64,000 bases of DNA from Squalus acanthias (lineage: Eukaryota): contig CM059431.1 in the NCBI GenBank assembly GCA_030390025.1, positions 119,476,001 through 119,540,000 on the forward strand, in the 5' to 3' direction. How positions within the stretch are numbered: position 1 is the stretch's first letter; the number at the start of each line of letters is the position of its first letter. This document shows, one piece after another, positions 9,354 through 55,841 of this stretch. Made by a program: the position numbers and the translations under genes. A model generated the notes under the pieces. It searched no databases. It was not told the origin of the DNA and worked only from the letters and a program-made list of their open reading frames with translations.

Positions 9354-9365
9354 GTCCCTCCTGTT
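9354..9365 (-). promoter_or_regulatory. Polypurine tract of A1
   Basis: Minus-strand AACAGGAGGGAC lies immediately before the TGTAG start of the 3' LTR. Confidence 0.8.
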
Positions 9366-15394: not shown

Positions 15395-15398
15395 TTTC

Positions 15399-27830: not shown

Positions 27831-29221
27831 TTTAAGACGTTCTGATTGTCTGACAGTTTATAGAGTTCAGACCCGTGGAACAGACAACACAAAACCCAAT
27901 GAATCTGTGAAACTTCTTTTACTTAAAAATCAACAAGAGGTTACAAGTAATTACCAGAATACAAACTGTACTCAATTCATGTACTTATTACAAGCAAACA
28001 TCTAAAATCATTTACTTTAAGCTCAGGTGATTATAAGCGCCACATACGTACTAACACCAGATGAGAGGTCAATTCAATGATGACTAGACGTATGACTTTA
28101 ACTGGCAACTGACCAGGTCACCAGCAACTACAGCCACAAATGTCAGCCTACAACATCCCTTATACCCCAAAACTTGGCAACTCGCCCACAGCATTTGTGT
28201 CCCATACTGTGATTAACGTTGTTTTTCTCTCTCTCCTTCTATCTGTTTTGACGCTTAGTTAACCAAGGCCAGACATTCAAGGATTGGAGAGAGTCATTGT
28301 TTTCATGTTTCCAGGTTGTTGATTTGTGGTTCTCATAGAATTTTCAAGATCTTATCTTTAGAAGGAAAAATACCAGCACATTGGCCCAAAAATTAGTCTC
28401 ACTACGCGAGAGTATGCACTGTGTACTCTCGCGTATTCTGTCTCCAATTGCCGGTTTTCTGCATGCACTGCGCATGCGCTGAAAACCGGCACTTGGTGAT
28501 TTCAAAAGGGGGCGGTTCCTAGGTGAACCGCGTGCGCGCTACAGGCTGCGCGCACGCAGTGCACTTAGTGCTTTGAACGCGCAGGTAAGCATGGAAGATT
28601 TTGCACATAAAGAAAGGAGGCATAAGACCCTCTTTTAACAAGGTAAGTAGTTAATTAAGTATTATTTTGAATTTTTTTCAACAAGTATATCTTTTTTAGA
28701 GACTTTAAAGAAAGGTAAGTTTATTTTTATAACTTTTAAAAAGATTTTAAATTTTTTCAAAAATTTAATTTTTTGTTTAAAGTGGTTAATTTATTTAACT
28801 ATACTTATTTTATTAATGTGATGGTTTTTAAAAAAAATTAATTGAGGTTTAGCTGTTCTTTTGGGGGGGTATAGTATTCATAACTTTCACAGCCCTTGCT
28901 GTGAAAACTATAAATGAAAGATGGTGTGCTGCCATTGGCTCTAACTGAATCACGTGATCCCACAGCTCGCACGAATTAACTGCGTCTGTGGGATACGCAC
29001 ACACTGCACAGCTGCTGTCTAGAAACTCAAGTTCGTGCGAGCTCGGAAGGAAAAGGCAGGCGCACAGTGAGATATCGCGGGGAAGCCTTACCCCCGCAGG
29101 AAGGCTCCGTCTTTAATTTCTGGGCCATGATGTTTTAGCCAAGCAGTCTCTTGCCCTCAAAGCTTGTTGTTACATTTGGTCACTTTTCGATTCAGTCAAG
29201 TTTACCATGGACAGTGTTACA
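27831..29221 (-). repeat. 3' LTR of element B (split by a MITE)
   Basis: Matches 48469-49114 apart from the 28383-29126 insert. Confidence 0.9.
28383..29126. mobile_element. Harbinger-type MITE inside the 3' LTR of B
   Basis: TIRs GGCCCAAAAATTA / TAATTTCTGGGCC. Absent from the 5' LTR. Confidence 0.85.
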
Positions 29222-29249
29222 TAATCCACCCTCAAGTGTCTGAACCTAA

Positions 29250-32200
29250 ATTTATATGTTGTCATCATCCTCTTCTTTCCGGGTCTTCTGTAACAGCTTG
29301 ACCAATGCTTGCTGCTTGCGGCATCTGTTGACTCGACAAGTTATTATCAATAAGTATAAAACAATCACCAACTGAACAACGACTAAAACATGGGAGGTAA
29401 TTCTTATCCAGGGGTGAATCTCGATATTCATACCAATAGCCCACCAAGACTTAGATATTTCTTTGCGCAGATTCCGTTTTTTCTGGGTCAGGGTATAAAA
29501 GTGCTTTTGAGACTGACTAACTCATTGCATTAACTCTACCAGGTGTTCTGGTAGAGGTGGAATTTCATAGCCGAATCGAGTCACATGCTGGTGTAATTGC
29601 TCTTTTAATTCATCTTCTACAGCGATATCTACTTGCCTATGTGAATAAATGCTACATAAGAACATAAGAAATAGGAGCAGGAATAGGCCACTTGGCCCCT
29701 CGAGCCTGCTCCGCCATTCAATAAGATCATGGCTGATCTTGGGATCAAAGCCACTTCCCTGCCCGCTCCCCATAACCCTTCACTCCCTTATCTTGCAAAA
29801 ATTTGTCTATCTCCACCTTAAATGTATTTAATGACCCAGCCTCCACAGCTCTCTGTGGCAGAGAATTCCAAAGATTTACGACCCTCTGAGAGAAGAAATT
29901 CCTCCTCATCTCAGTTCTAAAAGGGCGACCCTTTATTCTAAAACTGTGCCCCCGCGTTCTAGATTTCCCCACGAGGGGAAACATCCTCTCTGCATCTACC
30001 TTGTCGTGCCCCCTCGGTATCTTATATGTTTCAATAAGATCACCTCTAATTCTTCGTAATTCCAATGAGTATAGGCCCAGCCTGCTCAACCTTTCCTCAT
30101 AAGTCAACCCCCTCATCTCTGGAATTAACTATGTGAATCATCTCTGAACTGCCTCCAATTCAAGTATATCCTTCCTTAAATAAGGTGTCCAAAACTGTAC
30201 GCAGTACTCAAGGTGTGGTCTCACCAATACCCTGTACAGTTGTAGCAGGACTTCCCTGCTTTTATACTCCAACCCCTTTGAAATAAAGTCCAACATTCCA
30301 TTTGCCTTTATGATTACTTGCTGTACCTGCATGCTAACTTTTTGTGTTTCATGCACAAGGACCACCAGGTCCCTCTGAACTGTAGCATTTTGTTATCTCT
30401 CTCCATTTAAATAATAATTTGCTTTTTTATTTTTCCTGCCAATGTGTATAACTTCGCACTTTCCCACATTATACTCCATCTGCCAAATGTTTGCCGACTC
30501 ACTTAACCTGTTTATATCCCTTTGCAAGTTCTTTGATTCCTCTGCACAACTTGCTTTCCCACCCATCTTTGTATCATCTGCAAACTTGGCTACATTACAC
30601 TCGGTCCCTTCATCCAAGTCATTAATGTAGATTGTAAATATAATTCTAATATAATTGAAATAAAACCCGCGCCCCAAGCCTTACAGGTTGGACTGGGGTA
30701 AAGCAAAAAAGTTCCTGCCGCAATGGGACAAGTCAGGTTGTTACCATAATGGTATTCCCGGTGTATGGTAGTGACGCAATATTCACCTTTCCCTCGGTGC
30801 ACAGATTGTACGGGGAAAAGCTTTCCTGCAATTACTTTCATGGTGCAGTTCCATTCTACCCCATCCCAATCAAATCCACACGCAGGGGCTGCGTGTTCAC
30901 CACATCATAAGGGCAGATGAATGTATCCCGAGCTTGAGCGCACCCGATAAGAGCTGGGGCCACCCATGTGATCCCATCTACCCGGCACATACTGCGGGGG
31001 TTCGTCATACCTTATTAAGTGGTCTCCCTGATGTATTCCAATATTCTCCACACAGGTTAGAGGATTTGGGGTTGCCTTTACGTGCAGGATGGGATTATGC
31101 AATACCATCCCTAATAAGGTGATGTTGTCCTGTTCCTGCAAATGACATTTGTGTTTTACCGGGTACACTTGTACCAACCCCCTGACTTTACACATAGTTA
31201 TGGTAAATTGATAAGTGGACATTGCCCTCAGGTGTCGATCAGTCACCCACAAGGGAAGCTTCCCCTCAGCAATGCACTGCAGGTTTTCACGGGCTTGTTC
31301 CCCTAACCAGGATCCATACATTACACAAACACCATTTTGCACGGCCTCACTAGAGGCATTCAGATTCTCCTTTAAAATTTGGTTTATCTTTTTCGCATGG
31401 GATTCTAAATATTTAACCATGTCCTGCAGATGAATGTCATAATTTGTTCCTCCTTCTATTCCTCTTGTTCCAGACCATTCATTTTATTCAGAATTTCCTT
31501 TAGACGATTTCTAAACGCCTTTACAGATTGATCGAAATCAGCCAAATCAAGGCTATTAACGAGGGAGGTTCCGGTATTAAAAACAATGGCTGCATCATTT
31601 ATCAGACCCCGTCGCGTTCTGATATGGTCCCCTTTAACCCCATAACCGATGTTGTTTCCTTCAATGATCTCAGTATTTTTCCCAAAGTTATTGTTAAATC
31701 CATTACCATCTCCTGAACCCTTGCGATATAACGGTTCTAATTCTGATTCTGCCAGTGTTGTGCTGGCCTTTTCCCAAAATCCCTCTATTAATCCCTGCAT
31801 CGTTCTCCCATATAACCGCGCTGTTTCTGGTTTGCACCGGTTTGGCAGATCCACTTCAGTCAGATTTAATATTACAGGTACCACCTCATGATGCACATCA
31901 TGGTACAATACCATCCGAGTTGGGATTACCATGAAACCATTTGTTGGCTCCGGAGAGTGTTTGGGAACCAGACAACTCGGGTTTCCTGTTGTTCTTCCTG
32001 CAATTGTGTTTTATTTGGCGGGGGTGGGGGTGAAGTTTAGGACGGACTTTCAATTCCACCGTGTGTATTATTCCGGTTTTACATTCCTGCACATGATAAT
32101 GTGGGCAACCCTCCGAACCCCTATACTGCCTTCCCTCCCTGTCCACGGACCATTGCTAGGGACCCCTGTCATCTATTCCATTCGCTGAGATACCTTTCCC

Positions 32201-32725
32201 GCCTATCCAGTGGACGGGAGCTCCACAGAGCGGCTCTGCAGATATAAAACTATGGTTTGATAGCGTCCCCGAAGGGTTTATGCATCCATTGATTCCCTCA
32301 TGCTCCTGCCACCACCGTGGCCAACATAACAGGGTGTCTCCCGCTGCTCGGGATTGGGTCGGGCTTCCTACATTTCCCCGAGGGTTCCCTATCTGATAAT
32401 GCCTTGAATGGTTACCTGGTTCTCCTTGTAAAAACCACACCCTTGGCCGGGTGGGGCGATCTTTGCATTTTATGCAGACCCTCCCTACCTTCCTGGATCT
32501 CATAAGTGGTAACCCATACTGTCCCTGAATACACGGTTTCACAATTAACCTTGATGTACTGGAGGGTAATGTTTCGAGTGGTGTCCCGGGGTGGTGTCTC
32601 CGGGGCAACTGCAATTGAACTATTATCGGGAAAATAGTTAGTGTTGGTCCAGTATACTGAATAGGCTGACAGAAATCTTCGAGATAGAGCAGAATCCTGA
32701 TCATTGACCAGAATAATTCCTTCAT
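29250..32725 (-). pseudogene. env: env of element B, homologous to family A env (frameshifted, CR1-interrupted)
   Basis: IRTRR|GLINDAAIVFNTGTSLVNSLD vs RQRR|GLVNDAFTAFNTGTSVVNALD; FGYEIPPLPEHL vs FGYLIPPLPEHL; WIRITSHVLVV vs WVRIASHILVV. Confidence 0.9.
29654..30640 (-). mobile_element. 5'-truncated CR1 LINE inserted in env B
   Basis: KFADDTKMGG, LVRPHLEYCVQFW, RRNFFSQRVVNLWNSLP and a (TTCTTATG)n tail. Confidence 0.9.
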
Positions 32726-32993
32726 TTTATACAGTCCATGCTCTCAATACTGATGTATTTTTAAAAACAAAACAAAACAAAATGGGCTTCGTGATTTTCT
32801 TTTTCTGTATCGTGCAATTTTCTCACCCCTACCACTGATGATACTTCAAGGGTGTCTTTTTATTTCTTTTACTATGCTGCCATGGGGTAGGAGGGGTCTG
32901 TTGGATTCGTCTGCGGACAGGAGGTGGTTCCGGGCCTGGGGATGAGGAGGTTTCTACAGCTCCCATGTCCTGTCCACCTTCATTTGAATCACT

Positions 32994-33456
32994 GGGCTGG
33001 AATTTCATTGACCTGTGGAGGCGGGTTTGGAGGCGTGTGGGGGGTTAAAATTGCGAAAACTGACGGGCGGGCACAAGTCCGCGTCCATCCCGCCTCCATG
33101 CAATTTTCATTAAATCGTGTCTGCTGGTCCCGATTCCGTCCAGCCTTTAAGAGGCGGGATAGGCTGTTAAGGCCCTTATCAAGCACTAAATTGGCTCTAT
33201 AATGCCATTTTGATAGGCCTTTGTGATTTTAACCCTTGATCTATGTGAAGCACGCCTGTTCTGAACCACGATTGTGAAACCTGGCGGGAGCACATTTGGA
33301 TAGCTGACTATCAGCTGCAGGTCCACTATTACAATGGAGATGTGATGAAGGTAGTAGTAGTATTTGGTCTGAAAGTCGCCTCTGATGCTGCTGCATTGAA
33401 CGTCTTCAGAGACTGCCTGGCCTTTGCTGTGAGAGGACCTGGATGCAAAAAAAAAT

Positions 33457-33510
<54 letters not shown>

Positions 33511-33776
33511 TAGAGATGCTACTCATTTTGCATCCAGGTCCTCTCACAGCAAAGGCCAGGCAGTCTCTGACCTGCAATGCAGCAGCAATGATGACATCAT
33601 CAGAGGCAACTTTCAGACTGAAACCACTAATTGATTCATGGGTTCCCACATGCTGGAACTCAATTGCCCAATTAGGTGAAAATTGCATCAATCTCCCACA
33701 TCCAATTGCAGTCGGGTGGATAACACAAAATGCGGATGACACAACCCCAACCCGCCCCAGTATCAAAATCCAGCCC
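32994..33776. mobile_element. Harbinger-derived MITE with a long internal hairpin around a (TC)n tract
   Basis: TIRs GGGCTGGAATTT / AAAATCCAGCCC. Its subterminal sequence resembles 24510-24620. Confidence 0.75.
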
Positions 33777-33885
33777 CTTGTACCTGTGGAGGCACCACTT
33801 CAGTCAAGGGTGCCTCATTGGGTGGGGCTGTCCCATTAGGCACCCCCTCTTCATCATCCCACTGGGAAGGATAAATCCGGCTGAC

Positions 33886-35020
33886 TGAAGGGATATTTAC
33901 TAGTCCTAGCCCCTTTAGGGCTACCCTGGATCAGGAATATTTCTCAGACATTCAATTTCAACTAAAGTTTGAGGTAGCCGAATCCTAAAGGCGCTTAACT
34001 GGGTCTAAAGGTCTGGGCTAGCTCTCCCTAAAGGAAAGGAACAACCCGAGAATGTTACCATCCTCCAGATAGCGCTTTTAATAAGTTTAGCTAGACTGTA
34101 ACGTTCTGGATATTATGAGGGTCCGGAAAACTCCCTCAGAATTCTGCAACTCCTCACCAAAGAGTGCACAGAGATTGAGTTCACGAGTTTTTGATACAGA
34201 AGTCTTATGTGAGACAATTCTAAAAATATATACATTTATTAAAGAACCGACATGCAATTTACAGTTGGTGAATCAGTCAATCACAACATTAACCATTCTA
34301 AAAAGAGAAAAAATGCTATCTTATTATCAACAGAGAATCTTACTTTTAAATCTTAACTTCACTACAGTATTACAGTTCTTAATGATTTCTATTCAGGATA
34401 TCCATCAATATCAAATACCTTTGATCCCCGAGGTACAAAAAGTTGGAGACTACAGAGCCGCCTCTGAAGCCGAGAATAGCTTTGCCCGATTAAAACGAGT
34501 CTGTTATCCCATTTGAGAGTTCAATATTTATACCCTTTTCCAGTGGTATTTCCTTTAAGGTTTTCTGCTGATGCAAGCTAATTATCTCTAGTCATTTTTC
34601 TGCTGACCTCTGCAATTCTTACTGCCACATCAGCCAGAATCATGTCTCATCTCTAGGTGTTCTAAGTTTACCATATAAAAACGGTGTGATGGCAGGTGTT
34701 CCTTACTTTATGTCATCTTTACGAGGGCTGATTTTCCTTATCTTATCTTTACGAAGTGTAAATTAGAACACCTTATCCAGGGTGAACCATTGTTTCGTTC
34801 CCAAAAGTTCAGCTTGTCGGAACCCTTCACCTTCTGTTTCAATAAGGTTATTTATTCAGGGTCAACAACTGTCTTATCTCAACAGCCAGAATGCTTTCAT
34901 AGCTATTTTATAGTTAGGTTTCTAAATTTCCAAACCCAGTTTGTCATGTTTTAATAAGGCCAGAATTCTTTCATTAAGATAGTGTATTTTTCTGAATAGG
35001 TTATATGGCTTATTCCTTCA
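33886..35020 (-). repeat. Probable solo LTR of an unrelated family
   Basis: Termini TGAAGGGATA...TATTCCTTCA, with minus-strand TATAAA (~34530) and AATAAA (~34240). TSD not clean. Confidence 0.5.
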
Positions 35021-35023
35021 CAC

Positions 35024-35810
35024 TCACCATGTTCATAATCTTGGCTTGTTGTCTTCTTGACCTGCTTGTGGGCTGAAAAAGCTTAATCTGGTTAATATGA
35101 AACCATTTGATTTCCTTAGGTAACTGAACCATGTATACCATAGGACTAGCTTTGTCAACAATGTTATACAGCCCCTTTTAGAGGGGCTCAAAAACTCCCA
35201 TCTTCGCATAGTTTTGTACCATTACCTGGCTCTCCAATTCCCATTCCTGGGGTTTACTCGGAGCCACGTGTAGTCGGTTGCGTTGGTGTGCCGTCCCAAT
35301 GTTGTGGGCGGCCCTCAAGTTCAGTTCTTTTAAAGTTCCCCACAGGTCACTCAGGAATTTGTCCCGAGTCACCTCCTTAATTTGTTTATCAGTCAGAGTG
35401 GGGACCAACAGGTGTGTGGGGGTTTGCATGGGTCTCCCTGTTACCAATTCATGAGCAGAGTAACCCGTTCCTTTGGATTTGTGACTACGTATCCCCATAA
35501 GGATTAGGGGAAGTACCTCATCACACTTAGTGTGCTGTTCGTTTAATTCCTTTCGCAGAGCCAACTTCGATGTACGGTTCATTCTTCCCACAATTCCCGA
35601 TGACTGCGGGTTGTGTGTCACATGCTATTTCCCTTCAATTCCAAGCAATTTCAGAGTGGCTTGCATTACCTGACCTGTAAAATGACTTCCCTGGCCTGAC
35701 TCTACCACGTGAGGAAGTCCCCATCTGGAGAATACCTCTCTAACTAGGGTCTTGGTTGTCCATGAGGCTGTGGCCGACTTGCACGGGAAGACTTCTACCC
35801 ACCTGGTAAT
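35024..35810 (-). pseudogene. pol: Integrase core and C-terminal remnant of element B
   Basis: TRWVEVFPCK...VFSRWGLPHVVESGQGSHFTG...HNPQSSGIVGRMNRT, followed by a GPY/F-like KGLYNIVDK...KWFHINQIK module. Confidence 0.85.
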
Positions 35811-35899
35811 CTTGCACCATCAACACCCATCTGGCTCCATGCTTAAAAGAAAATACAGACAATCCATTGTGGTTTGCCTACGAGCCCAATAGTTCTATT

Positions 35900-36045
35900 T
35901 GTCTGACAGTTTATAGAGTTCAGACCCGTGGAACAGACAACACAAATCCCAATGAATTTGTGAAACTTTTTTTACTTAAAAATCAACAAGAGGTTACAAG
36001 TAATTACCAGAATACAAACTGTACTTAATTCATGTACATATTACA
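35900..36045 (-). repeat. Internal partial copy of the family B LTR
   Basis: TGTCTGACAGTTTATAGAGTTCAGACCC... matches 27847 and 48485 onward for about 145 bp. Confidence 0.85.
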
Positions 36046-38074
36046 ATTCCTGATTCCCTTCTGTCACTGTGGGGAAATATTCACTTAAAACGGAGCAGGC
36101 TCAAGGGGCCGTATGGCCTACTCCTGCTCTTATTTCTTATTAAGAAACTTAAATTTAATAATGTCCAATATCTTTAAATTTCATTCAGCAATAAAAAGCT
36201 GCTTTGCGGTGAATATAAAAAAAACAGATGTCAGTGGAAAGGGTTAACTCCTTTGCCAGTTTGTAAGAAGGCGGAGCAAATTGTTAGATGCATGCAATTG
36301 CGTCACTTCACGTAAATTTTGAAAAAACTTTCCTGATTGAAAAAGACAGTTTGGTTTTCACAATGTAACAGGTTAGTTAACTTTTTTTTCAAAAGAAGAC
36401 AAACCCAGATACCATCAATCAATGTCAACTTGTGTCACACAGCCTCTTGCAGCTTTCAGGTAAATTTAAAACTAAATCTTTGTGCCTTTAAAATTAGTAA
36501 CACCACTACAAACATTTTGTAAAACAACTCCACACACAATAATAGCATTTCTATTGTTTTCCCCTGGTCACACATACTTGAAATTGGTCAGAAATTTCAA
36601 AAATACCAATTGTTGATGTGATTGCCTCATGTCCGGAACTAAAGGCTTTCACACAATTTACACCAACCAGAATTTCACCGTGGCCACAATAAAAGTCTGG
36701 TTTAAACAGGTTAATTAACCTCAATAACTCCAATTCAATTCAAACCAGTATCTTAAACTAACCAGTACCACTTGGAAAACAAAAGTGGGAGGAGCTTCCC
36801 TCAGCTTGTAGCTTCGAAACATTCATACAAGTTTTTTTCAGACATCACTACACTGAAAGTAGAAGAGGGACAGGAGCTTTCCTTTCTCCTGTTTTTATTT
36901 CACTATAGGCTACTTGTCAAAAACTTAGAAAGTGGGCGTCTCGGACATGCAGTAACCAAATTAAGAAGACAGTGCTTTGTAAACGTTCAATTGATTTAAA
37001 ATCAAATCAAACAATTGCTATTTTTTGTAATACAATTAGAACAAAGTACTTTCAAAAAGTCCAAATTCATTTCTACCAGACATGATTAGAAACCATGGCA
37101 ACTGTAACGTCAAGGCTGAAGCTTATCTTTTGTAAAACAAACTGCCTCTGATTTACAGTTTGCTGTACAAGCTGTCCCAGTCAAAATATATCTACAGCAG
37201 TGTCTTTAACTTAAAAATACAAATCACAAAGTTTCTCCCACTTCTAGGCGCACAATCTTAAATTGAATTGAACATATTTAACACATCCACACTCCAACAT
37301 GTAAGATAAGACTTCAGAGGGTTAAAAAGGTTTAACTCCAAGCACAGAAAAGTGGGTGGAGCTAAAACAAATACAACAGACACTGAGGGCTGGATTTTGT
37401 CAGCCCCGAGGAGGCGGGCATGGAGGCAGGACTGCCGGTAAAGTAGCAGAAAGTGGGGGCGGATGGCAAACCCGCCCCCATCCCGCCTCCGTGCCCTTTT
37501 GCCAGGAGGCGGGAAGATGTCCTGTTTTTGGTCCCATCTCCTCGAGACGGGAAAGGGATTAAATCCTTTTAACTGCCTGTTAACAGGTAGTTAACAGGCT
37601 GAAAAAAGGATTAGTGCCATTTTACCTTCTCAGATGAAGGCTTCCCAACCTCGGAGAACCCTGCCAGGTTGGAGGAGTCGAGTAGGAGGTCTGTGGGGGT
37701 CGGAGGGGCCTGAAAGTGAGATGTAGAGGTGGGTGATGGGTGCAAGTGTGGAGTGGTAAGTATGTGAGGCGAGTGTTAAGTGTTAGAAAGTGTTCACTTA
37801 CCTTTATTTCTGCCTACAGCCTTCATCCGCTCTGGATCGGGAGTCCCAACATCTTCCTTGTAGATTTCACAGACTGGCTATTGGATCCTCTGAACCAACA
37901 GTCATCTGAAATCTACAAAGTTGAAAGGTTTGATGAGTCCTGAACACAAGGGCTCATCAAACTACACAGAATGTCAGTGTTTGACAGCTTCACAGAGCTG
38001 TCAAATGCTGACATTTCTTCATTCAAGAAGTCTTGACAGATCGCACGTCAGACGTTAACGTGCTCTGTCAGTGA

Positions 38075-39722
38075 TGTAGAATTCGCAATATATCGCGATT
38101 TTATTAATAAGGAGAAAACACAAAGTTTCGTTCAAACAGCTTTTATTTCAGCAGAATGCTGGCAGGTTTAAAGTGGACACAAGCAGCCTGTAAAATGGCC
38201 GCCGCACCTCGTGACAGAACATTCTAGACTTTTCAACAGGCAGACAAGATGGCGTTCCAATAAACATTTGTGCAAGGTCGATTAAGATTCAGCACAGTGA
38301 AGATAATACACGAGACATTATGGGTTTGCAGTATACACATAGATACTGAAATCGGTCTCCCAGGTACAAAGGAAAGCCATTGTACCGAGTAATCAAGGGC
38401 CCATCCAAAAGACATTAATATGTAAAATCCCAACGACTCTACGATGAGAGAGCCGTTAGCAGGTAGTTATACAGGACACTTGGAAGCCCCAAACCCCTCC
38501 AGGGAGAACATCGACCGATTTAACAATGGGAGAAATATTAACAGGTACTCAGACATTTACGAGTAGCCCCGAAACCCATTAAGAACGGAGATCACCCATA
38601 CAAGACATTTGGGCGCCAAACCCTAAACAAAAGAATGGACATTATAGTTGGGCGGGAAACAGAAGATTTTGCACTATAATTGCAGGCTCCAAACCGTCCA
38701 TTCTCTCTCTTGCTCCTGTGTTTTTATCCGGTCGATTCGTAACCTCGTGGCTGCTCCTGTGTACTCGTAGTTGGGCTTCTGCTTGCCTGTTGCCTCTTCT
38801 GAAAAGACTGTTGAACTTTCTGATCCGTTCGGATCTACCTCGTGTCGCGTAACGAAGACCTATGTTGGTAACTGGCAGCGGAACCGAAGGCCCGAGATGA
38901 GATGAGATGAGATGAGATGAGATGAGAAGAGAGGAAGACCATATCCATCGCCACGGTCAGTAAATCCCGACCGCGCCTGTAGGTCGATTAGCCAAGTTTT
39001 CCTCGCCAGGAAGACTTCTCTTGAACTTGCAAGGAAACATATCGTAGCGACGATATCGATAACTGTGCTCGAAGAGTACCTGTTAAGCCAACCAACACAG
39101 GTCTTTCATCACAGCAGACGGTCCAGCCTGCTAGCCGGAGCAGCAGAAGCAAGTAAACAAGTGGGACCAGGAGATCTCCTGACCGACACGTGGGTGCTGC
39201 GGTGAAAAACATCCGATCAGCTATTCGGAATTTCTCCGAGTTATCACGAGTGGTGAGCATGAGTCTCGAGATCCTACGAATCTAGTTTAGGATAGATATT
39301 GATAGGGGAGGGTTTAAGGATTAAGGATATTTGTAATGTGTGCCCCTATTTACTTTGTGCCGTTCGTTCCTCGTTTCCCTAAGATCGACTATATAACTGT
39401 TTGTAAGATTGTACTGTCATTAATCTGTGCTTATGACATGTATTTCATAATCTTAAGTATCATGCAATAAAGATTTTCCATTTCGTACCATTCAAACCAA
39501 GTCTACATGAGTTTTATCTCCATTACTGCTCTCGCATCTAAGTCCAGTGTCTAGAACCGTAAGGGAGAGTGATTCGAACCACTCACAGGTGTGTCTAGTG
39601 TTCCCAGACTGGCTGGAGACCAGAACAGGCAACAAGGCCTAGACCCGCACTGACATACAGGCTGCACAGAGCCGCGTGAATCTCACAGGCTGCGAGACAC
39701 GCAGGGTCAGGAATCCCTGACA
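38075..39722 (+). repeat. 5' LTR of A2
   Basis: TGTAGAATTC...CCCTGACA. TATA-like TATAAT at ~38675, (GAGAT)n, AATAAA at ~39466. Confidence 0.95.
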
Positions 39723-39726
39723 GAAA

Positions 39727-41538
39727 ATGGCGACCGCGGCAGGACACTGGCAGCGAGAGGGTAGTGTGTTAGATTTTGGAATGACTGTACGAAATGTTAT
39801 GCAGGAAAAGATAGCGGATTATGTGTTTGGAAAGGTTAATCTAACTAAGAAATGGATAAGTGAATTGTTAGCGGATAAGAGCCCACTAGAGGCAGCTGAA
39901 AGGTGGACGGATAGTAAAGAACATAGAAAGACACTTGAGAAAGCAGTCTGGCTTATGTGTTATAAAAGGCAGGTTCAGATTTCAAACCAGACCATTACAG
40001 CGCTAGTAGCTCGAATCAGTCATTTAGAGGGAGAAATGGAGGAGAAGGTTTCTGGAGGGGAGGTGCTCATTAAGAATTTAAATGAGTTACACCAAGAAAG
40101 CCAGGAAGTCTCCAGTCACCTTAAAACAAGGATAGATTATCTCGAGTGCCAGGTCACTGAGGCAAAATTGAATGAGAGCAGGTTAAAGGAAAGATGTAAC
40201 CGCCAAGCTGCCCAGATAAGAACTCAAGAAGAGAGCTTAATGGGGGTTAGGGCGGCATATAAGTTGGCCCTTGAGGATAAGTTTCAGGGAGCCGATCATA
40301 GCGCCTGCCAAAGGGAGATAAAGCACCTCAAAAAGGCCGTGAACAATGCGAACGGCATGGTGTGCCTTATCAATCCGTCGGCGCACCAGCCGCTAGTAAA
40401 TGAGAGATTTAGAAAATCCCCACCAAGTAAAGCAGAAGAAGTAGTAGCCACTGCGCCCTCCGCGCCACCCAGCTATTCAGAAACCTGGGTTAGGGAGGAA
40501 GCAATGGAAGAAACAAAAGAGCCCATTGAAAAGGAAGTAGAAAAGGGATCGTTGTATCCAGTAACGGGTATTAAAAGGGGCCCAAGCAGAAACGGTGGGG
40601 AAGAACCGGGGGATCTCCTCGGACAGCTGGTGTTGCCTCACAGTTCACATCAGCTGAGAGCTATGATAAATCACGTACGGAAGCTGACCGAGGCAGACGA
40701 CCCTTCCGTACATTTCAGAGAAGTTGAGCAAGCCGCAGCCATTAACGGCTGCGATGATGGGGAGACAGCAAAAATGCTGCTGTTCTCATTAGACAGCTCG
40801 GTCCTTCAGTGTCTCTCAGGCGAGAGCAAGAGGGGAACCAAGAGTTATGAGGAATTAAAGAATGAGGTCCTGGAAGTGTTGGGGGCGAACGACGAAGGTC
40901 CGTTTGCTAGAGTGGGACAGACAGTGCAGATGGAGGGAGAACCCCCGAAGGTTTTTGCCGACAGGCTGTGGCCAGTATATGAGCGCAGCTGTCTAGGTGC
41001 GCCCGAGCGCGAAGATGTGGAAGGTTTAGCTTTAACTCATTGGCTTAGGTGCATAATAGCCAACAGTTTACCAGCCGTTAGAGAGCAGGCAAAAGCATGG
41101 TTTGATCCCAATGACCCCAACATTACGGAAGAGTCGGTCTTGAATCGACTCACGTTAGGTTATCGCAATATAAGGGGTATGGCAACACGTCCCCTTAAGG
41201 GAAGAGTACATGAGGTACGACCCGCAGCCCCGTATCAAAGAGAGTGGCATCAGGAGGGTAATCGCGCCCCACAGGCAAGTAATGCTTGTTACGGGTGTGG
41301 GAAGACAGGGCACTGGCGCAAGCATTGCAGGAACCCTTGGAAGGATTCCAAGGATAAAAATCCCGCGGTCCGAGCCCAGGCGCCTGTCCCGGCTAAGGAA
41401 GCCAAGGCACCCACCCCTCCTGACGAACTCGAAGTAGTGTTAGGAGCCATGCGCAAGCTGGTCTTGAATGCGCGTGGACAGGTGGCGGTCGCAACCGGCC
41501 CCGTAGGTGCCGCAGGACCGTCTAATAGTACCCAATGA
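39727..41538 (+). CDS. gag: Gag, 603 aa
   Basis: About 92% identical to A1 Gag (47 differences counted by eye). CCHC knuckle and PSAPPSY present. Confidence 0.9.
   Translation: MATAAGHWQREGSVLDFGMTVRNVMQEKIADYVFGKVNLTKKWISELLADKSPLEAAERWTDSKEHRKTLEKAVWLMCYKRQVQISNQTITALVARISHLEGEMEEKVSGGEVLIKNLNELHQESQEVSSHLKTRIDYLECQVTEAKLNESRLKERCNRQAAQIRTQEESLMGVRAAYKLALEDKFQGADHSACQREIKHLKKAVNNANGMVCLINPSAHQPLVNERFRKSPPSKAEEVVATAPSAPPSYSETWVREEAMEETKEPIEKEVEKGSLYPVTGIKRGPSRNGGEEPGDLLGQLVLPHSSHQLRAMINHVRKLTEADDPSVHFREVEQAAAINGCDDGETAKMLLFSLDSSVLQCLSGESKRGTKSYEELKNEVLEVLGANDEGPFARVGQTVQMEGEPPKVFADRLWPVYERSCLGAPEREDVEGLALTHWLRCIIANSLPAVREQAKAWFDPNDPNITEESVLNRLTLGYRNIRGMATRPLKGRVHEVRPAAPYQREWHQEGNRAPQASNACYGCGKTGHWRKHCRNPWKDSKDKNPAVRAQAPVPAKEAKAPTPPDELEVVLGAMRKLVLNARGQVAVATGPVGAAGPSNSTQ
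39728..39745 (+). promoter_or_regulatory. Primer-binding site of A2
   Basis: TGGCGACCGCGGCAGGAC, identical to A1 and overlapping the first gag ATG. Confidence 0.65.
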
Positions 41539-42687
41539 CTAGAGCCCACGCAGCCTGCCTACCTGTGTCTTTTTAAAAGACACGCACAGGAGGGGGTCTG
41601 CGGTGAGGAGGCCAGGTTAAAAGAGCAGGCCTTGCGGGAGGAGAACGCCCGCTTAATAGGGAAAATAGATGGGCTGGAAGGGCAGCTTAGAGAGCAGACC
41701 CTGCGGGAGGAGAACGCCCGATCAATGGGAAAGTTGGACGTGCTCAGGCTAGAAGAGCAGCTTAGAGAGATAAAAGCAGCCTACAGGGTAGCCAAAAGCC
41801 GGGAGTATGAGGATGTAAACCAATGCAAACTGTACCAGCCAGGTGCGCAGGGGAAAACTACAGGGGTAAATCCCGCCAATGGGAAAGCACAGCCCCAGGT
41901 AGGACCACAAGGCACACAGGCAGGCATAGCAGCTTGCATCAGGGGAAGGGACATCCCGGACGATCATGCAGCGTTTTTCTGGAATTGGGGGTTAGATGAG
42001 GAAGAATTCAGGGTACCCTGGTCAGATGAGGATAGTGCAGATGAGCATAGTGATGATGACGGGTGGTTCCTGAGGAACGGTCTGGAGGGAATGGGGGCTG
42101 TAGGTAGAGATCCACACAGGGTGGACACACAAGCTGCAGGTCCCGAGGACAGGAGGGAGGAGCTAGAGGAGGCAGGGCCAGCCGCTATGGGAGCACAGAG
42201 AGTACCGGTGTGGCTCCCAGCGATGTGGCCACCCACTTTGAACGTCCAGTCCTCAGGGGAGGCAGAGATCACGAGTGAAGGGCCGCCTGCTGGGCTGAGC
42301 AGGGCGGAGCCACGAACTGCCAGCCCCGAGGTTAGGGAGGCGGAGTCAGCGGAGGCGGAGCCGGCGACTGTGATGGAACCCCAGGTCACCCCGATGGAGG
42401 TCTCGGAACCCGGTCCGTCCGTCACGGAACCCCCGCCCATAGCAACTCCCCGTAGGTCAAGTAGAGAACCCCAGCCCAGGAGGATGTGGTCATGTCCCCA
42501 GACTGCCCCAAGGCGTAAATTTAAGGTTAAGATAACCCAGGTACAGACCGGCCACATCGCAGCAGTAACAGGCTGCGGCAGATCAGAGGGAAGGGTCAGC
42601 GCAGCAACAGGCTGCGGCAGATCAGAGGGAAGGGTCAGTGCCCTCCCACCGTCGGGAAGAGCTCGCAGCAGCCTTCTCAGAATTTAA
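41539..42687 (+). CDS. ORF-X, in-frame continuation of gag after TGA
   Basis: CAA TGA CTA GAG... stays open to TAA at 42687. Homologous to A1 ORF-X. Confidence 0.75.
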   Translation, partial: LEPTQPAYLCLFKRHAQEGVCGEEARLKEQALREENARLIGKIDGLEGQLREQTLREENARSMGKLDVLRLEEQLREIKAAYRVAKSREYEDVNQCKLYQPGAQGKTTGVNPANGKAQPQVGPQGTQAGIAACIRGRDIPDDHAAFFWNWGLDEEEFRVPWSDEDSADEHSDDDGWFLRNGLEGMGAVGRDPHRVDTQAAGPEDRREELEEAGPAAMGAQRVPVWLPAMWPPTLNVQSSGEAEITSEGPPAGLSRAEPRTASPEVREAESAEAEPATVMEPQVTPMEVSEPGPSVTEPPPIATPRRSSREPQPRRMWSCPQTAPRRKFKVKITQVQTGHIAAVTGCGRSEGRVSAATGCGRSEGRVSALPPSGRARSSLLRI

Positions 42688-42975
42688 AGGGGCCGCCCTG
42701 AGAACGGGCGGCACTGTAAAGTTATAGTTTTAAGTTTTAAGTTAATAGTTCAAGGTTAAGTTTATAGTTTTTTTAATAAGGTTAAGTTTGTAGTGTTTTT
42801 AACAGAAAACGATAAAATGATGGGAGTTTTAAAGATAGGTTTAGTTGAAGTTTATTCAGCGAACGTTGAAGTTTACGTGAGGCGAGGTCAGGGGACCCGC
42901 TCACCCTTCACAAAAGCCAGAGACTCTTGCGAGGCTGGCTACCTCATTCTATCTGATCACAGGAACCAAGGAAGG

Positions 42976-45327
42976 ATGGAACGAATTCTAGTATTGCTCG
43001 TGGCAATCGGATGTGGATTGGCCTATCGAGGCCGCACCAAGGATGTCGTGGTGTTTGGATGTTCCGGGGACACGGCCCCCATCGCGGTGGATGGGACCGG
43101 AAGACGGGAGGCAGAGGAGACCAGCACCTATTTCCACAAGGGAAGGTGGCCAGGATGGCTGGGAACGAACTCAACGGAGTATTCCAGCACGTCGGGGTTT
43201 GCCTACAAAGAGACTTCTTTACTGTGCCCCAAAGTAAGGATCATCGCACCCAGGATCAGCGTCACCGTCGGCAAACGGATTTGTTTGACTTGTAGTGGGA
43301 AGGTCCCATTGAGCCGATGGTGGTGGCTGCGAAAGCTGAGCAAAACTATGAGAAACTCTTCGGTCGAGTGGGAACGACTGGGTAATAATACCCATCGGAC
43401 AATTACGGGGACAGACGGACAAGTGAAAGTCTGTTGGGACAAATGGTGGGAACCGGATGAGGGAATTTATGTATGTATGTGGGGGTCAAAGTACGTTTGC
43501 CCCAAAGGCATCTCCATATTTTTTATTAATCAATGGCAGGATAACGGACAGGGGATGAGGTGGGATGCGAGCACCAGGGGGTGCGGAGCCCCATTCTCCC
43601 CGATCCCAGTAAATGCCACTGAGCTCATTACGCGCCCACGCAAAGCCCCGCCCACGATTCCGGTGGTTCTAGCTGAGGAAGAAGGGTGCCCTAAAACTAG
43701 TAAGGGACCCGGGAATGGTTTGGTACTGGTCCCCACAGACCAGATACTATTTCAGGGGGTACATTACGCGGTGGCCTCGGTGATTTTAAATCTCACTGAG
43801 GTACGGTTACCAGAGTGGTGCCCCAAAAAGACGGAACAGTTGTACCAGGTCCTGTTGACCAAGATGTTCAGACAATTTTACGAATTCGATTTCGCGGAAA
43901 TTGATAAAACAAGTTTGTACACCGCGCCACAGGAAGTTTTGGATCAAGTAGGGAGGCAAAGAAGGGGTTTGGTGAACGATGCGTTCACTGCTTTTAACAC
44001 AGGTACATCTGTGGTCAACGCTCTAGACAGTGTGGAGCTGCAGACCCAGATTAATGGTTTAAAGACACAATTAAAGGACATTCTAACAGATGAGAATAAA
44101 GTGGTAGGGTCGGGTCTACACGAGGACCAAGCCATGACCCTCCATTTAAAGGAAATTATAGCAGAGTTGGAGAAACATGCAAAGACGGTAAATGCCCTGA
44201 TTAGGGAAGATCGGAATGCATCCGATCAAGCTGCGCAGAACGAGGTGTGCGTGCTTTACGGGGCGTGGTTACTGGGCGAGGGCCGCAGTAATTTGGAGGA
44301 TTTAAAACAAGGTTTGGTTCCGTCCTGGATAAGTAACAAACACCTACGGGCGCTCCACCCTTTTCAGAACGCATTAAGCCCGTGCCAGCTCAGGCTAGCT
44401 TCAGAAGCATACCCAGTCCCCGTGGACTGCGGACGATCAAACCATACTATTATGGGAATAGTATTACGTATGCCGGTTTTGGGCGACACAGCAAAGCCCG
44501 CCCCGGTATATCGGGTAGAGAACATCGGTGTCATTCAGGGGGGAGCCCACATTCGTTATGCAGCGGTTCCACCTTACGTCATCCGCTGGGAGCAAACGAT
44601 GACAGGTACAGATCTCTCTGGTTGTCGTGGCAGGGGAGCACACATAATACTGTGCCCCCAGCACTTGAATGCCTTTTTAACACCACAGTGCGGGTTCAGA
44701 ACGGCTGGCGCCAAGTCCATGAATTGCACCATGGAGGCAATGGCACAAGATCATGTGCCTCCGCAGGTAGCATACATCGGGGGTGGAACATATTGTGTTA
44801 CCACTGCAGCGCAACACTACCAGCATGGAAACCGTAGCCGGTGTCCGGTGAGTGACAGCAGTTTCTGTTTTAAACCCAGGGCGGAAGTTCAAGTAGCACA
44901 ACAGCGAATTATCCCAATCCCTGAACCATCCACTGTTCATCTCACAGTAAAAGAGAATTTCACCGACTTGCAGCGATTCGTCGCGCATTTTGGATACCTC
45001 ATTCCCCCTCTCCCTGAACACCTCACCAAGCTTTTAAAAGCCGTCGCGGTGTCACAGAAACATTTTTATACATTAGAGCAGAAAACTGTCGAAATAGGAA
45101 CAGACATTCTGGTTATAGTAGTTCCACCGTGGTGGAATCTGTTCACTAATATTGAAGTGCCTTCATGGATCAGAATAGCCTCCCACATTTTAGTCGTATG
45201 CCAAGTTTTCATTGTAGTGTACCTATTGGTCGTACATTGTAAAAGAGACAAACGCCTCACCAAGCATGAAAACACGGGAGAGTGGCGAGAACGTTACGTG
45301 CGCGTGCACGATGAAAGCACCGTGTAA
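42976..45327 (+). CDS. env: Envelope glycoprotein, 783 aa (Ig-like + F-type fusion protein)
   Basis: About 98% identical to A1 Env (17 differences counted by eye). The ATG at 42976 follows the acceptor-like CTGATCACAG|G. Confidence 0.9.
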   Translation: MERILVLLVAIGCGLAYRGRTKDVVVFGCSGDTAPIAVDGTGRREAEETSTYFHKGRWPGWLGTNSTEYSSTSGFAYKETSLLCPKVRIIAPRISVTVGKRICLTCSGKVPLSRWWWLRKLSKTMRNSSVEWERLGNNTHRTITGTDGQVKVCWDKWWEPDEGIYVCMWGSKYVCPKGISIFFINQWQDNGQGMRWDASTRGCGAPFSPIPVNATELITRPRKAPPTIPVVLAEEEGCPKTSKGPGNGLVLVPTDQILFQGVHYAVASVILNLTEVRLPEWCPKKTEQLYQVLLTKMFRQFYEFDFAEIDKTSLYTAPQEVLDQVGRQRRGLVNDAFTAFNTGTSVVNALDSVELQTQINGLKTQLKDILTDENKVVGSGLHEDQAMTLHLKEIIAELEKHAKTVNALIREDRNASDQAAQNEVCVLYGAWLLGEGRSNLEDLKQGLVPSWISNKHLRALHPFQNALSPCQLRLASEAYPVPVDCGRSNHTIMGIVLRMPVLGDTAKPAPVYRVENIGVIQGGAHIRYAAVPPYVIRWEQTMTGTDLSGCRGRGAHIILCPQHLNAFLTPQCGFRTAGAKSMNCTMEAMAQDHVPPQVAYIGGGTYCVTTAAQHYQHGNRSRCPVSDSSFCFKPRAEVQVAQQRIIPIPEPSTVHLTVKENFTDLQRFVAHFGYLIPPLPEHLTKLLKAVAVSQKHFYTLEQKTVEIGTDILVIVVPPWWNLFTNIEVPSWIRIASHILVVCQVFIVVYLLVVHCKRDKRLTKHENTGEWRERYVRVHDESTV

Positions 45328-45766
45328 TCGGAAAATGGCGTCACTCCCGCTCGCCGCGTGCGCCGCGGAAGTTTGTACTCATATAAGATTTTCAGAGATT
45401 GTAAATACGTTGGGAACTCGACATGTTTTCAGAGTTGGTGTTGATTTATTTTGGTGATGGTGTTACAGTTAAAAATGATTGTTTGGTTTTGGGTTTTGTT
45501 TCTCCTTTCCCTGAATAAAAGATGAATATACAGGTGATACGAGAGGCATCGGCCTGGTTACGCCGGGAAGGAAAACAAGTGGTGTAAGTTTAAGGGCAAA
45601 TAATGCCTACGGTGATATAAAATGTAATCTTCTTGGGAAATGAGGACGACACAGAGACCCTAGCTAAGTTAAAATTATGGGATTAATTTACTGGATTCGG
45701 AGAGAAATCGAGATAATATTGCTCACCATTATGATTTTTGATACGATAAGCGGAGTTATTCGCATC

Positions 45767-45778
45767 AACAGGAGGGAC
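45767..45778 (+). promoter_or_regulatory. Polypurine tract of A2
   Basis: AACAGGAGGGAC lies directly before the 3' LTR. Confidence 0.8.
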
Positions 45779-47426
45779 TGTAGAATTCGCAATATATCGC
45801 GATTTTATTAATAAGGAGAAAACACAAAGTTTCGTTCAAACAGCTTTTATTTCAGCAGAATGCTGGCAGGTTTAAAGTGGACACAAGCAGCCTGTAAAAT
45901 GGCCGCCGCACCTCGTGACAGAACATTCTAGACTTTTCAACAGGCAGACAAGATGGCGTTCCAATAAACATTTGTGCAAGGTCGATTAAGATTCAGCACA
46001 GTGAAGATAATACACGAGACATTATGGGTTTGCAGTATACACATAGATACTGAAATCGGTCTCCCAGGTACAAAGGAAAGCCATTGTACCGAGTAATCAA
46101 GGGCCCATCCAAAAGACATTAATATGTAAAATCCCAACGACTCTACGATGAGAGAGCCGTTAGCAGGTAGTTATACAGGACACTTGGAAGCCCCAAACCC
46201 CTCCAGGGAGAACACCGACCGATTTAACAATGGGAGAAATATTAACAGGTACTCAGACATTTACGAGTAGCCCCGAAACCCATTAAGAACGGAGATCACC
46301 CATACAAGACATTTGGGCGCCAAACCCTAAACAAAAGAATGGACATTATAGTTGGGCGGGAAACGGAAGATTTTGCACTATAATTGCAGGCTCCAAACCG
46401 TCCATTCTCTCTCTTGCTCCTGTGTTTTTATCCGGTCGATTCGTAACCTCGTGGCTGCTCCTGTGTACTCGTAGTTGGGCTTCTGCTTGCCTGTTGCCTC
46501 TTCTGAAAAGACTGTTGAACTTTCTGATCCGTTCGGATCTACCTCGTGTCGCGTAACGAAGACCTATGTTGGTAACTGGCAGCGGAACCGAAGGCCCGAG
46601 ATGAGATGAGATGAGATGAGATGAGATGAGAAGAGAGGAAGACCATATCCATCGCCACGGTCAGTAAATCCCGACCGCGCCTGTAGGTCGATTAGCCAAG
46701 TTTTCCTCGCCAGGAAGACTTCTCTTGAACTTGCAAGGAAACATATCGTAGCGACGATATCGATAACTGTGCTCGAAGAGTACCTGTTAAGCCAACCAAC
46801 ACAGGTCTTTCATCACAGCAGACGGTCCAGCCTGCTAGCCGGAGCAGCAGAAGCAAGTAAACAAGTGGGACCAGGAGATCTCCTGACCGACACGTGGGTG
46901 CTGCGGTGAAAAACATCCGATCAGCTATTCGGAATTTCTCCGAGTTATCACGAGTGGTGAGCATGAGTCTCGAGATCCTACGAATCTAGTTTAGGATAGA
47001 TATTGATAGGGGAGGGTTTAAGGATTAAGGATATTTGTAATGTGTGCCCCTATTTACTTTGTGCCGTTCGTTCCTCGTTTCCCTAAGATCGACTATATAA
47101 CTGCTTGTAAGATTGTACTGTCATTAATCTGTGCTTATGACATGTATTTCATAATCTTAAGTATCATGCAATAAAGATTTTCCATTTCGTACCATTCAAA
47201 CCAAGTCTACATGAGTTTTATCTCCATTACTGCTCTCGCATCTAAGTCCAGTGTCTAGAACCGTAAGGGAGAGTGATTCGAACCACTCACAGGTGTGTCT
47301 AGTGTTCCCAGACTGGCTGGAGACCAGAACAGGCAACAAGGCCTAGACCCGCACTGACATACAGGCTGCACAGAGCCGCGTGAATCTCACAGGCTGCGAG
47401 ACACGCAGGGTCAGGAATCCCTTACA
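45779..47426 (+). repeat. 3' LTR of A2
   Basis: Repeat of 38075-39722 at offset 7704, with at least 4 substitutions seen. Confidence 0.95.
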
Positions 47427-47719: not shown

Positions 47720-48428
47720 ACTCAGCAAATCTTGTGTTTTATTTGTCTCGGCACAGTCGCTGATAGCTTCCGTGTCGGTAAAACTTTAAGTTTCCTTTTT
47801 TTCCTTTTAAATTGTTGTCTCAGCATTTTCCATGCTTCCCAAATCCCTTGTTTTTTTCCTTCCTTTGCTGAGTTTTCAGATTGGTTAGCCTGCAACTTAG
47901 ATCTTTTCCCCTCTTTATCTCCCACTCTTTATGCTTATTACATTCAGTGTGGTCCCCACGAGCACTCCGTTCCTCCAGAGCCTGTTTCTGGGTGACCCTA
48001 AACGCAACCTTCAGGTCCTCATTGATCATTTCTGCCTGCTCTGCCTGATGTCTCTGTTTGGATAATTCTTTTGACAAGGCATCGTACTGATTCTGATTAT
48101 TTATACACTGGCTCTCGAGTTGTTGTTCTTTATTACACCACCTCTCCTCCTGTTCTAACTTTTCATCAAGCCTGTTTCTGTGTTCCCTTTCTTCTTCTAT
48201 TTCTCTTCTTAACTTGATCTTTACCCTTTCATCAGATTTAACCTGCCTCTGTTAGGCCAATAAACAAACAAATTTACTTAACCTTTGCTGACACATGGAC
48301 CCTTGGGTCCACTGTTCAGCCTCCAATTCTGGATCATCACCATCTATAATGACCCGTACCCACCCCTCTTTGAGGGGTAACTTCGCTGTCACATACCTAG
48401 TGACTAACTCATCCATTGTCTTTGCCAT
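47720..48428 (-). pseudogene. gag: N-terminal gag remnant of element B
   Basis: MDELVTRYVTAKLPLKEGWVRVIIDGDDPELEAEQW aligns with A Gag MQEKIADYVFGKVNLTKKWISELLADKSPLEAAERW; GDHTEC vs ADHSAC. Confidence 0.8.
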
Positions 48429-48444
48429 TATCTGCTCTGAACGG

Positions 48445-48462
48445 GTCCCTGTTTGGGCGCCA
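48445..48462 (-). promoter_or_regulatory. PBS of element B, tRNA-Lys(UUU) type
   Basis: TGGCGCCCAAACAGGGAC is one mismatch from the tRNA-Lys3 PBS TGGCGCCCGAACAGGGAC. Confidence 0.85.
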
Positions 48463-48468
48463 ATAATC

Positions 48469-49114
48469 TGTAAGACGTTCTGATTGTCTGACAGTTTATA
48501 GAGTTCAGACCCGTGGAACAGACAACACAAAACCCAATGAATCTGTGAAACTTCTTTTACTTAAAAATCAATAAGAGGTTACAAGTAATTACCAGAATAC
48601 AAACTGGACTCAATTCATGTACTTATTACAAGCAAACATCTATAATCATTTACTTTCGGCTCAGGTGATTATAAGCACCACATACGTACTAACACCAGAT
48701 GAGAGGTCAATTCAACGATGACTAGACGTATGACTTTAACTGGCAACTGACCAGGTCACCATCGACTATAGCACCGAATGTCAGTTTACAACATCCCTTA
48801 TACCCCAAAACTTGGCAACTCGCCCACAGCATTTGTGTCCTAAACTGTGTGATTAACGTTGTTTTTCTCTCTCTCCTTCTATCTGTTTTGACGCTTAGTT
48901 AACCAAGGCCAGACATTCAAGGATTGGCGAGAGTCGTTGTTTTCACGTTTCCAGGTTGCTGACTCGTGGTTCTCATAGAATTTTCAAGATCTTATCTTTT
49001 GAAGGAAAAATACCAGCACATCATGTTTTAGCCAAGCAGTCTCTTGCCCTCAAAGCTTGTCGGTACATTTGGTCACTTTTCGATTCAGTCAAGTTTACCA
49101 TGGACAGTATTACA
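48469..49114 (-). repeat. 5' LTR of element B (646 bp)
   Basis: TG...CA ends, adjacent PBS, followed by TSD GGGT. Confidence 0.9.
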
Positions 49115-55000: not shown

Positions 55001-55841
55001 GAGGGGGGAAGAGAGGTAATCGGGAGGGGGGAAGAGAGTCAATCAGGAGGGGGGAAGAGAGGTAATCGGGAGGGGGGAAGAGAGGTAATCGGCAGGGGGG
55101 GAAGAGAGGTAATCGGGAGGGGGGAAGAGAGGTAATCGGGAGGGAGGAAGAGAGGTAATCGGGAGGGGGGAAGAGAGGTAATCGGGAGGGGGGAAGAGAG
55201 GCAATCGGGAGGGGGGAAGAGAGAGGCAATCAGGAGGGGGGAAGAGAGAGGCAATCAGGAGTGGGGAAGAGAGAGGCAATCAGAAAAGGGGAAGAGAGGC
55301 AATCAGGAGGGGGGAAGAGAGAGGTAATCGGGAGGGGGGAAGAGAGAGGTAATCGGGAGGGGGGAAATGAGAGTCAACTGGGAGGGGTGAAGGCTGGAGA
55401 TCATTGCTTGGGTGGTGGAGTTTGGCTGCGATCGCGGCATGGAGCAGACATCGGTGCTGGGGGGGGTGGGGGAGCTCTGCCATCGCGGTGCGGAGGAGAG
55501 AGACCACGATCGCCAGAGGGGAGGCTGAAGGCTTGCTTGAGGGTCCGGGGGGATCACTCCCGCACCTTCTGTCCCACAAGGATTGCTGTAAAAAGCACTT
55601 AACTTCTTGAGCCTCCCTTTCACTGCTGTGTTTCACAAGCCCTGGGAAACCCACACGGCAACTGTTAAATTGAAATCAGGCTGACAATTGCACTTTGGGA
55701 GCGAGATTTAAATATGTTAATGATGTGGCCCGCCTCTGCACTCACACACCACAAAACCTGCCGCCGTAAAAACGGCAACGGGCACGTACCCCCCCTCCCC
55801 GACGCTCTCGCGCTCTTCATTGGCTGGTTAATATCGAGGCC
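52028..55841. mobile_element. Harbinger-type MITE containing an expanded minisatellite
   Basis: TIRs GGCCTCGATATTTAC / GTTAATATCGAGGCC and 3-bp TSD ATT. Confidence 0.85.
52330..55370. repeat. G-rich ~21-23 bp minisatellite (AGGTAATCGGGAGGGGGGAAGAG)n
   Basis: Direct tandem array of about 3 kb with variant units. Confidence 0.97.

Follow-up and report, generated by a model that had tools for sequence, protein, structure and literature searches.

Non-autonomous proviruses usually retain gag alone or nothing. The mouse IAP 1Delta1 element is described as a non-autonomous, recently active provirus in which the loss of pol has left a novel in-frame fusion ORF and which is served by a helper in trans (PMC6466679). 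The deletion in this element, of 1.9 kb, simply cuts across gag and pol; elements of its type are mostly devoid of env, and its fusion product is reported to act in cis. In the koala recombinant recKoRV1, the middle of a young provirus was replaced by other retroelement sequence, and the product then reached many copies; the gag leader and the env end are all that remains, and coding capacity was lost (PMC6112702). The zebrafish element BHIKHARI is presented as a pol-less, recently mobile relative of lokiretroviruses with a coil-bearing Gag and presumed helper use; it has a single gag ORF, with neither env nor an ORF in the pol slot (bioRxiv 10.1101/2024.03.25.586437).

Lokiretroviruses as described by Wang and Han (PMC7947760) have a Gag with an MLV-like capsid and, in some members, an N-terminal coiled coil (the order "smc-gag-pol" in the supplement), an Env similar to the paramyxo- and pneumovirus F protein (PF00523) with a cleavage site of the RxKR type, and a motif at the integrase end. 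Their reverse transcriptase, which is combined with a tether and RNase H, groups as the sister of Retroviridae, and their integrase is nearest to CGIN1. All elements described there carry pol, with short Pol tails; the screen found none in three chondrichthyan genomes, and the main text has no match for "readthrough" or "non-autonomous". Among the matches listed for lokiretroviruses, for endogenous retroviruses (ERVs) of sharks or other cartilaginous fish and for pol-less ERVs with gag and env, no title concerns the element analyzed below, and keyword matching of PMC9040795, PMC12440569, and bioRxiv 10.1101/2023.10.26.564294 gave nothing on sharks or readthrough.

Here, we analyze a 64,000-nucleotide stretch of the Squalus acanthias genome (the window), in which two full copies of an LTR element, A1 and A2, each contain three long frames: gag, ORF-X (hereafter X), and env. 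As in IAP 1Delta1, pol loss has left an in-frame fusion ORF, here only through a read-through stop. In contrast to the mouse element, gag is whole and has a stop in a readthrough context, the gap holds a Gag-coil insert, and env is intact and under strong purifying selection; in contrast to recKoRV1, gag, env, and the replaced frame are all open. We consider it somewhat better than an even chance that X is what remains of pol, in frame, in a helper-dependent lokiretrovirus-like element, composed of a pol start, a Gag coil, and an integrase tail, read through and kept open for the sake of the RNA. The anatomy of X, taken by itself, is highly probable.

Such a provirus retains gag and env under purifying selection, a readthrough signal, and an open pol slot whose sequence seems not to matter. 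With its many young copies, it offers a natural experiment on what holds a retroviral frame open, be it RNA stability or a fusion protein acting in cis. It further suggests that cartilaginous fish harbor lokiretrovirus-like elements and that readthrough at UGA-CUA occurs in the lokiretrovirus clade.

Provirus layout and copies

A1 and A2 are 92% identical to each other. The two LTRs of A2 share 99.76% identity and are flanked on both sides by GTGA, while those of A1 share 99.94% identity, with the flanks CACC and GACC differing by one mismatch. Judged by these LTR identities, both insertions are very young. The X region was found in 20 of the 24 sequencing runs among the matches listed, which come from 8 studies and bear at least four organism labels. 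The primer-binding site of A2 (39727–39744), which we take to be of the tRNA-Arg(UCG) type, overlaps the first gag ATG.

Features of the two proviral copies and of a decayed relative (positions in the window)
Feature	Position	Strand	Description
Copy A1, second full copy	7753–16999	−	gag-X-env layout as in A2
ORF-X of A1	13582–12422	−	386 codons
Element B, decayed relative	27833–36046	−	LTR 27833–29221; broken env; integrase piece 35013–35894
Copy A2, LTR element	38075–47426	+	carries gag, X, env
A2 5′ LTR	38075–39722	+	1648 bp, TG...CA; target-site duplication GTGA just before
gag of A2	39727–41538	+	603 aa; long N-terminal coil, capsid domain, one CCHC knuckle
Candidate readthrough signal	41536–41608	+	UGA-CUAG, then stem-loop starting about 7–10 nt past the stop
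ORF-X of A2	41539–42687	+	stop to stop, 382 codons, in frame with gag
First ten codons of X (putative pol start)	41539–41569	+	positioned in the pol slot
Gag-coil-like insert	41570–41815	+	246 nt, 82 codons; 69-nt internal repeat
Likely integrase C-terminal tail	41816–42687	+	NQCKLY motif, then about 285 disordered acidic/Pro-rich residues; pLDDT mostly under 50
env of A2	42976–45327	+	783 aa from ATG; RQRR site; acceptor-like CAG just upstream
A2 3′ LTR	45779–47426	+	short purine tract directly upstream

The best named relative of Gag is a skate protein (50% identity); named relatives also occur in whale shark, catshark, horn shark, and Xenopus. The N-terminal coil corresponds to a helix predicted by AF2 at residues 68–183, a feature shared with some lokiretroviruses. 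The top three Foldseek rows for Gag are HTLV-1 and MLV capsids, with probability 1.0 but E-values of only 1.3e-3 to 2.7e-3 (1.3e-3 for the best HTLV-1 row and 1.6e-3 for the best MLV row), in line with a capsid of the MLV/Ty3-like kind.

The nearest atlas cluster of Env is fusion glycoprotein F0 (score 0.92, 204 features), and the Env sequence had no match in Pfam or in the PDB sequence search. The env gene is likely translated from a spliced RNA. Between A1 and A2, env is a recombination mosaic: within 44527–45126, the copies are identical over 300 nt and differ by 14.7% 150 nt further on. The N-terminal part of Env (43237–43476) gives a weak match to an immunoglobulin domain (Pfam Ig_3, E 0.49).

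No pol domain was detected in X or in the gag–env interval of either copy, where lokiretroviruses have gag, pol, and env, and given this absence A1 and A2 can be lokiretrovirus derivatives at most. The element resembles a lokiretrovirus, not an ordinary Ty3/gypsy element; its layout fits, but as it lacks reverse transcriptase, the defining criterion of the group, we name it only lokiretrovirus-like.

Element B is a decayed relative whose env is 26–46% identical to that of A2. Its integrase piece has in-frame stops and abuts an LTR piece of 155 bp (35892–36046). The best PDB match of the integrase piece is the foamy-virus integrase (E 1e-10), and its last part gives a weak score for an integrase SH3-like domain.

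The frame of ORF-X behind the gag stop

X has no stops in its own frame vs. 21–23 in the other two sense frames, and none of 2000 base shuffles of X was stop-free (mean of 14 stops). Thus, X is confirmed as a real frame rather than a chance one. The earliest Met is found at codon 63 in A1 and A2 alike, and X has no start codon near its 5′ end.

In both A1 and A2, gag ends with CAA TGA CTA G. In vertebrate genes and alphaviruses, the UGA-CUAG context is reported to be read through efficiently (PMC4132726), and one published lokiretrovirus gag likewise ends with TGA followed by CTA (PMC7947760). The stem-loop past the stop has fold z-scores of −2.2 and −2.1, with 4 and 5 of 200 shuffles folding equally well. 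The segment 41527–41676 is the least diverged 150-nt interval of gag-X (0.7% between A1 and A2). By analogy with these known signals, there is a strong case that X would be made by readthrough of the gag stop, at a low level. Since an early start codon is lacking and the gag stop is UGA-CUAG with a stem-loop, X is probably an extension of Gag rather than a separate gene, and the predicted Gag-X product of 986 residues would be made in place of Gag-Pol.

Searches with X yielded no homologs among 8000 candidates at E-values up to 0.01 (proteins of 210–669 aa only) and no atlas match scoring 0.9 or more, and Pfam reported only a weak coil model (E 0.009). The lack of homologs, together with a pyrimidine-rich stretch ending in AG near 41565–41588, would suit a separate accessory gene of foreign origin, expressed either through a dedicated spliced RNA or by initiation at Met-63. 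We regard this origin as very improbable: X stands in frame behind UGA-CUAG, its parts can be derived from Gag and from the end of an integrase, it is not under purifying selection, and the context of Met-63 has a T at −3.

Composition of ORF-X

The preliminary description of this locus presented X as an unknown protein that had replaced pol, possibly a pol shell refilled with a Gag-derived coil. The features it listed, i.e., coiled-coil repeats, an acidic patch, a PRRSSR motif, and a 39-bp duplication, are all present. EQALREENAR (aa 29–38) and EQTLREENAR (aa 52–61) are spaced 23 codons apart, and the internal repeats measure 69, 39, and 15 nt, with the 39-nt duplication at 42562–42638 and the 15-nt one at 42023–42052. 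The segment said to echo Gag, EEQLREIKAAYRVAK (aa 72–86), indeed aligns with Gag EESLMGVRAAYKLAL.

The resemblance to Gag covers aa 11–92 of X. In a shuffle test, which did not keep heptad periodicity, none of 500 shuffles scored as well as this segment against 7 of 14 Gags, including the element's own Gag, while 3 of the 14 gave z of 1.0 or less. A Gag profile search found 169 proteins among 1.84 billion. When X was compared with 154 Gag-profile proteins, only Gag coils matched, the best being P0034 from whale shark (49% over 39 aa), followed by P0002 and P0031; outside the coil, X had no match at E under 0.3 in this set. A profile–profile comparison of X with Gag gave a weak score (probability 6.6, E 0.0055). 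These comparisons argue strongly for a Gag origin of the coil. The DNA of the insert matches the element's own gag no better than chance (37 of 300 shuffles), and hence the donor may have been the gag of a relative, or the insert may be old.

Another candidate, in which the whole of X would be a second gag in truncated form, was dropped: aa 93–382 showed no significant similarity to any of the 14 Gags (best result, 14 of 200 shuffles).

Loose contig ends in other sequencing runs coincide with the ends of the insert. Four contigs of run X19 leave the A2 copy after 41569, and three, from X3 and X19, join at 41815/41816; these junctions come from a listing of 24 among 525 loose ends, with 3–4 contigs per junction. 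Each junction lies behind the first position of a codon, and the 246 nt between them are exactly the coil. From their position, the first ten codons of X may be the retained start of pol.

Right after the coil, the copies contain non-homologous in-frame sequence (A2 41806–41880; A1 13315–13205, minus strand), and runs X7 and X19 have a joint at the same site. X may have acquired two independent 3′ junctions after the coil.

In A2, residues 94–101 of X (NQCKLYQP) align with the integrase end of element B (E 0.002; 4 of 2000 shuffles), and of the 13 Pol ends that the supplement of PMC7947760 shows for lokiretroviruses, 12 carry W-V-H-x-N-Q-[IL]-K near the terminus. The X of A1 lacks the NQxKL motif, and 1306 of 2000 shuffles score as well. 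Past the motif, about 285 aa remain in X vs. about 22 aa in element B, and published lokiretrovirus Pol tails are of about 30 aa or less, approximately ten times shorter than the tail of X (PMC7947760). We assign the tail of X to an integrase C-terminus with moderate confidence, the pol origin of both X ends being argued from the junction positions and one short motif.

In this form, the idea of a refilled pol shell largely survives: the frame lies in the pol slot, aa 11–92 are Gag-coil-like, and the sequence from codon 93 onward resembles an integrase end. What speaks for the shell is the NQxKL motif at the junction and not the RRSxR motif on which it was originally based. Motifs of the RRSxR type are found at the C-terminus of Ty3/gypsy Pol proteins. 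In X, PRRSSRxPQPR does not form the end of the tail but lies 68 residues before the stop; the region has no Pfam match, and the motif is absent from the 13 lokiretrovirus Pol ends shown and could not be tied to any Pol. Instead of an unknown protein, X is a real frame that appears to be a chimera of a Gag coil and a probable integrase tail, and it is probably not a new protein family.

The AF2 model of X, computed from a two-sequence alignment, contains one confident helix (aa 21–98), and 282 of the 382 residues have pLDDT <50. With so shallow an alignment, low pLDDT alone is no proof of disorder, although the composition of X agrees with it.

By eye, P0031 (whale shark) and P0019 have a piece of gag fused directly to the N-terminus of env, which suggests other internal deletions in the clade.

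Frame maintenance and possible roles of ORF-X

Selection was assessed on a single pair of copies, A1 vs. A2, by the Nei–Gojobori method with 95% confidence intervals. The dN/dS ratio is 0.27 (0.18–0.40) for gag, 0.064 (0.04–0.10) for env, and 0.88 (0.58–1.48) for X, rising to 1.16 when the non-homologous aa 90–113 of X are omitted. Gag and env are under purifying selection. Differences at the three codon positions number 32/29/30 in X vs. 25/24/60 in gag and 17/6/85 in env. Changed and silent codons number 45 and 11 in X vs. 47 and 49 in gag (p = 1.4e-4), and 17 and 84 in env; the ratio in X is not distinguishable from that in the disordered parts of Gag (16 and 8; p = 0.25). Residues of X are close to free, like those of any disordered linker. 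This also holds for the acidic aromatic patch, which had been thought well conserved between copies: its dN (0.056, aa 114–183) is no better than that of X without aa 90–113 (0.061). The dS of X, 0.05 without aa 90–113, falls below the values for gag (0.15) and env (0.18), which we do not read as constraint, as env itself is a mosaic.

An antisense ORF at 41964–42683 was rejected as the driver of X, the differences being flat over the codon positions of X.

The frame itself fared differently from its residues. As noted in the preliminary description, the length differences between A1 and A2 in X, a 21-nt gap and a segment of net 33 nt, preserve the frame. The second is not a simple indel, since aa 90–113 of A2 and aa 90–126 of A1 cannot be aligned at the DNA level. 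A variant in run X3 has a net loss of 75 nt in the coil repeat, the third frame-preserving length change, and none of the 12 indels listed, of 40, falls within X. Neither stops nor frameshifts were found in the X of the two copies, which differ at about 6% of sites. The probability that X would stay stop-free after 59 neutral substitutions is 0.11. Both length differences in X are in frame (2/2), compared with 5 of 28 across one LTR and the spacers; the probability of two in-frame differences is 0.03–0.11, and the joint chance of the two outcomes is about 0.003–0.012, a post hoc value for one pair of copies. The frame of X looks protected.

These values bear on whether X is a neutral by-product, i.e., one in-frame replacement of pol that spread with a successful young lineage and is too recent to have decayed. 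The neutral rate of amino acid change and the youth of the insertions agree with that, and the test is biased, as X was chosen for being an ORF. We nonetheless consider such an origin improbable in view of the low joint chance at this level of divergence and of the occurrence of the X stretch in runs under at least four organism labels.

The preliminary description further suggested that X might recruit helper Gag-Pol or act as an accessory factor, and named a dN/dS near 1 beforehand as evidence to the contrary, which is what X displays. Sequence evolution gives this proposal no support; such a role is still conceivable, as the ratio of changed to silent codons is similar in disordered parts of Gag.

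In its fullest form, Gag-X would be a working cis-acting fusion protein, its coil drawing helper Gag-Pol to the RNA-bearing particles and its tail serving as a sequence-indifferent spacer, with mouse IAP 1Delta1 as a precedent (PMC6466679). We regard this as the main alternative, if an unlikely one. The frame has been kept through several length changes, the ratio of changed to silent codons is compatible with disordered Gag, the Gag-type coil of the insert is confidently helical in the AF2 model, and only 5 of the first 89 codons of X differ between the copies. However, 4 of these 5 differences alter the residue, one variant lacks 75 nt of the coil repeat, and the low divergence at the coil extends to silent sites and to the stem-loop. 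Recombination can explain the low divergence, given the env tracts of 0% and 14.7% difference. Moreover, X has no relative among the proteins of 210–669 aa searched, and a dN/dS near 1 lends no support to mobilization in cis. A complex of the Gag coil with the X coil, modeled from single sequences, scored 0.01, a value that we count neither for nor against binding. The stronger proposition, that a second Gag coil added by readthrough of the gag stop captures helper Gag-Pol and turns the element into a self-enveloping satellite retrovirus with a Gag and an F-type Env of its own and the pol slot as an enzyme-recruiting adaptor, seems doubtful to us.

Our preferred reading is that X is a pol remnant kept open for the RNA. 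The pol slot would be filled by ten codons of pol start, the Gag-coil insert, and the integrase tail, and low-level readthrough of the gag stop would yield Gag-X. Ribosomes would still terminate at the old pol stop, preserving the termination pattern of the parent, and the open frame would shield the unspliced RNA from nonsense-mediated decay. This protection is the weakest step of the scheme and is drawn by analogy with MoMLV, whose RNA is reported to be stabilized by readthrough against nonsense-mediated decay (PMC7566565).

The element would supply its own Gag and Env, with Pol alone to be provided in trans. It has no protease, reverse transcriptase, or integrase, yet the insertions are very young; it follows that these enzymes must come in trans from a pol-bearing relative. 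Among 11 Gag-profile matches scanned for such relatives, 3 have Pol domains; two of these are polyproteins of the copia type, and the third has no Pol domain beyond an integrase core. None of 131 candidates proved to be a longer relative of the element B integrase, and none of the pattern matches, 140 from metagenomes and 42 from viral contigs, was confirmed as a Gag-related locus.

Elsewhere in the window, an LTR about 95% similar to that of element B occurs at 47865–49114 (minus strand), adjoined by a different primer-binding site, presumably of the Lys type, and then by a related gag start with a stop. A long tandem array with a 23-nt period and a strong purine skew occupies about 52300–55500.
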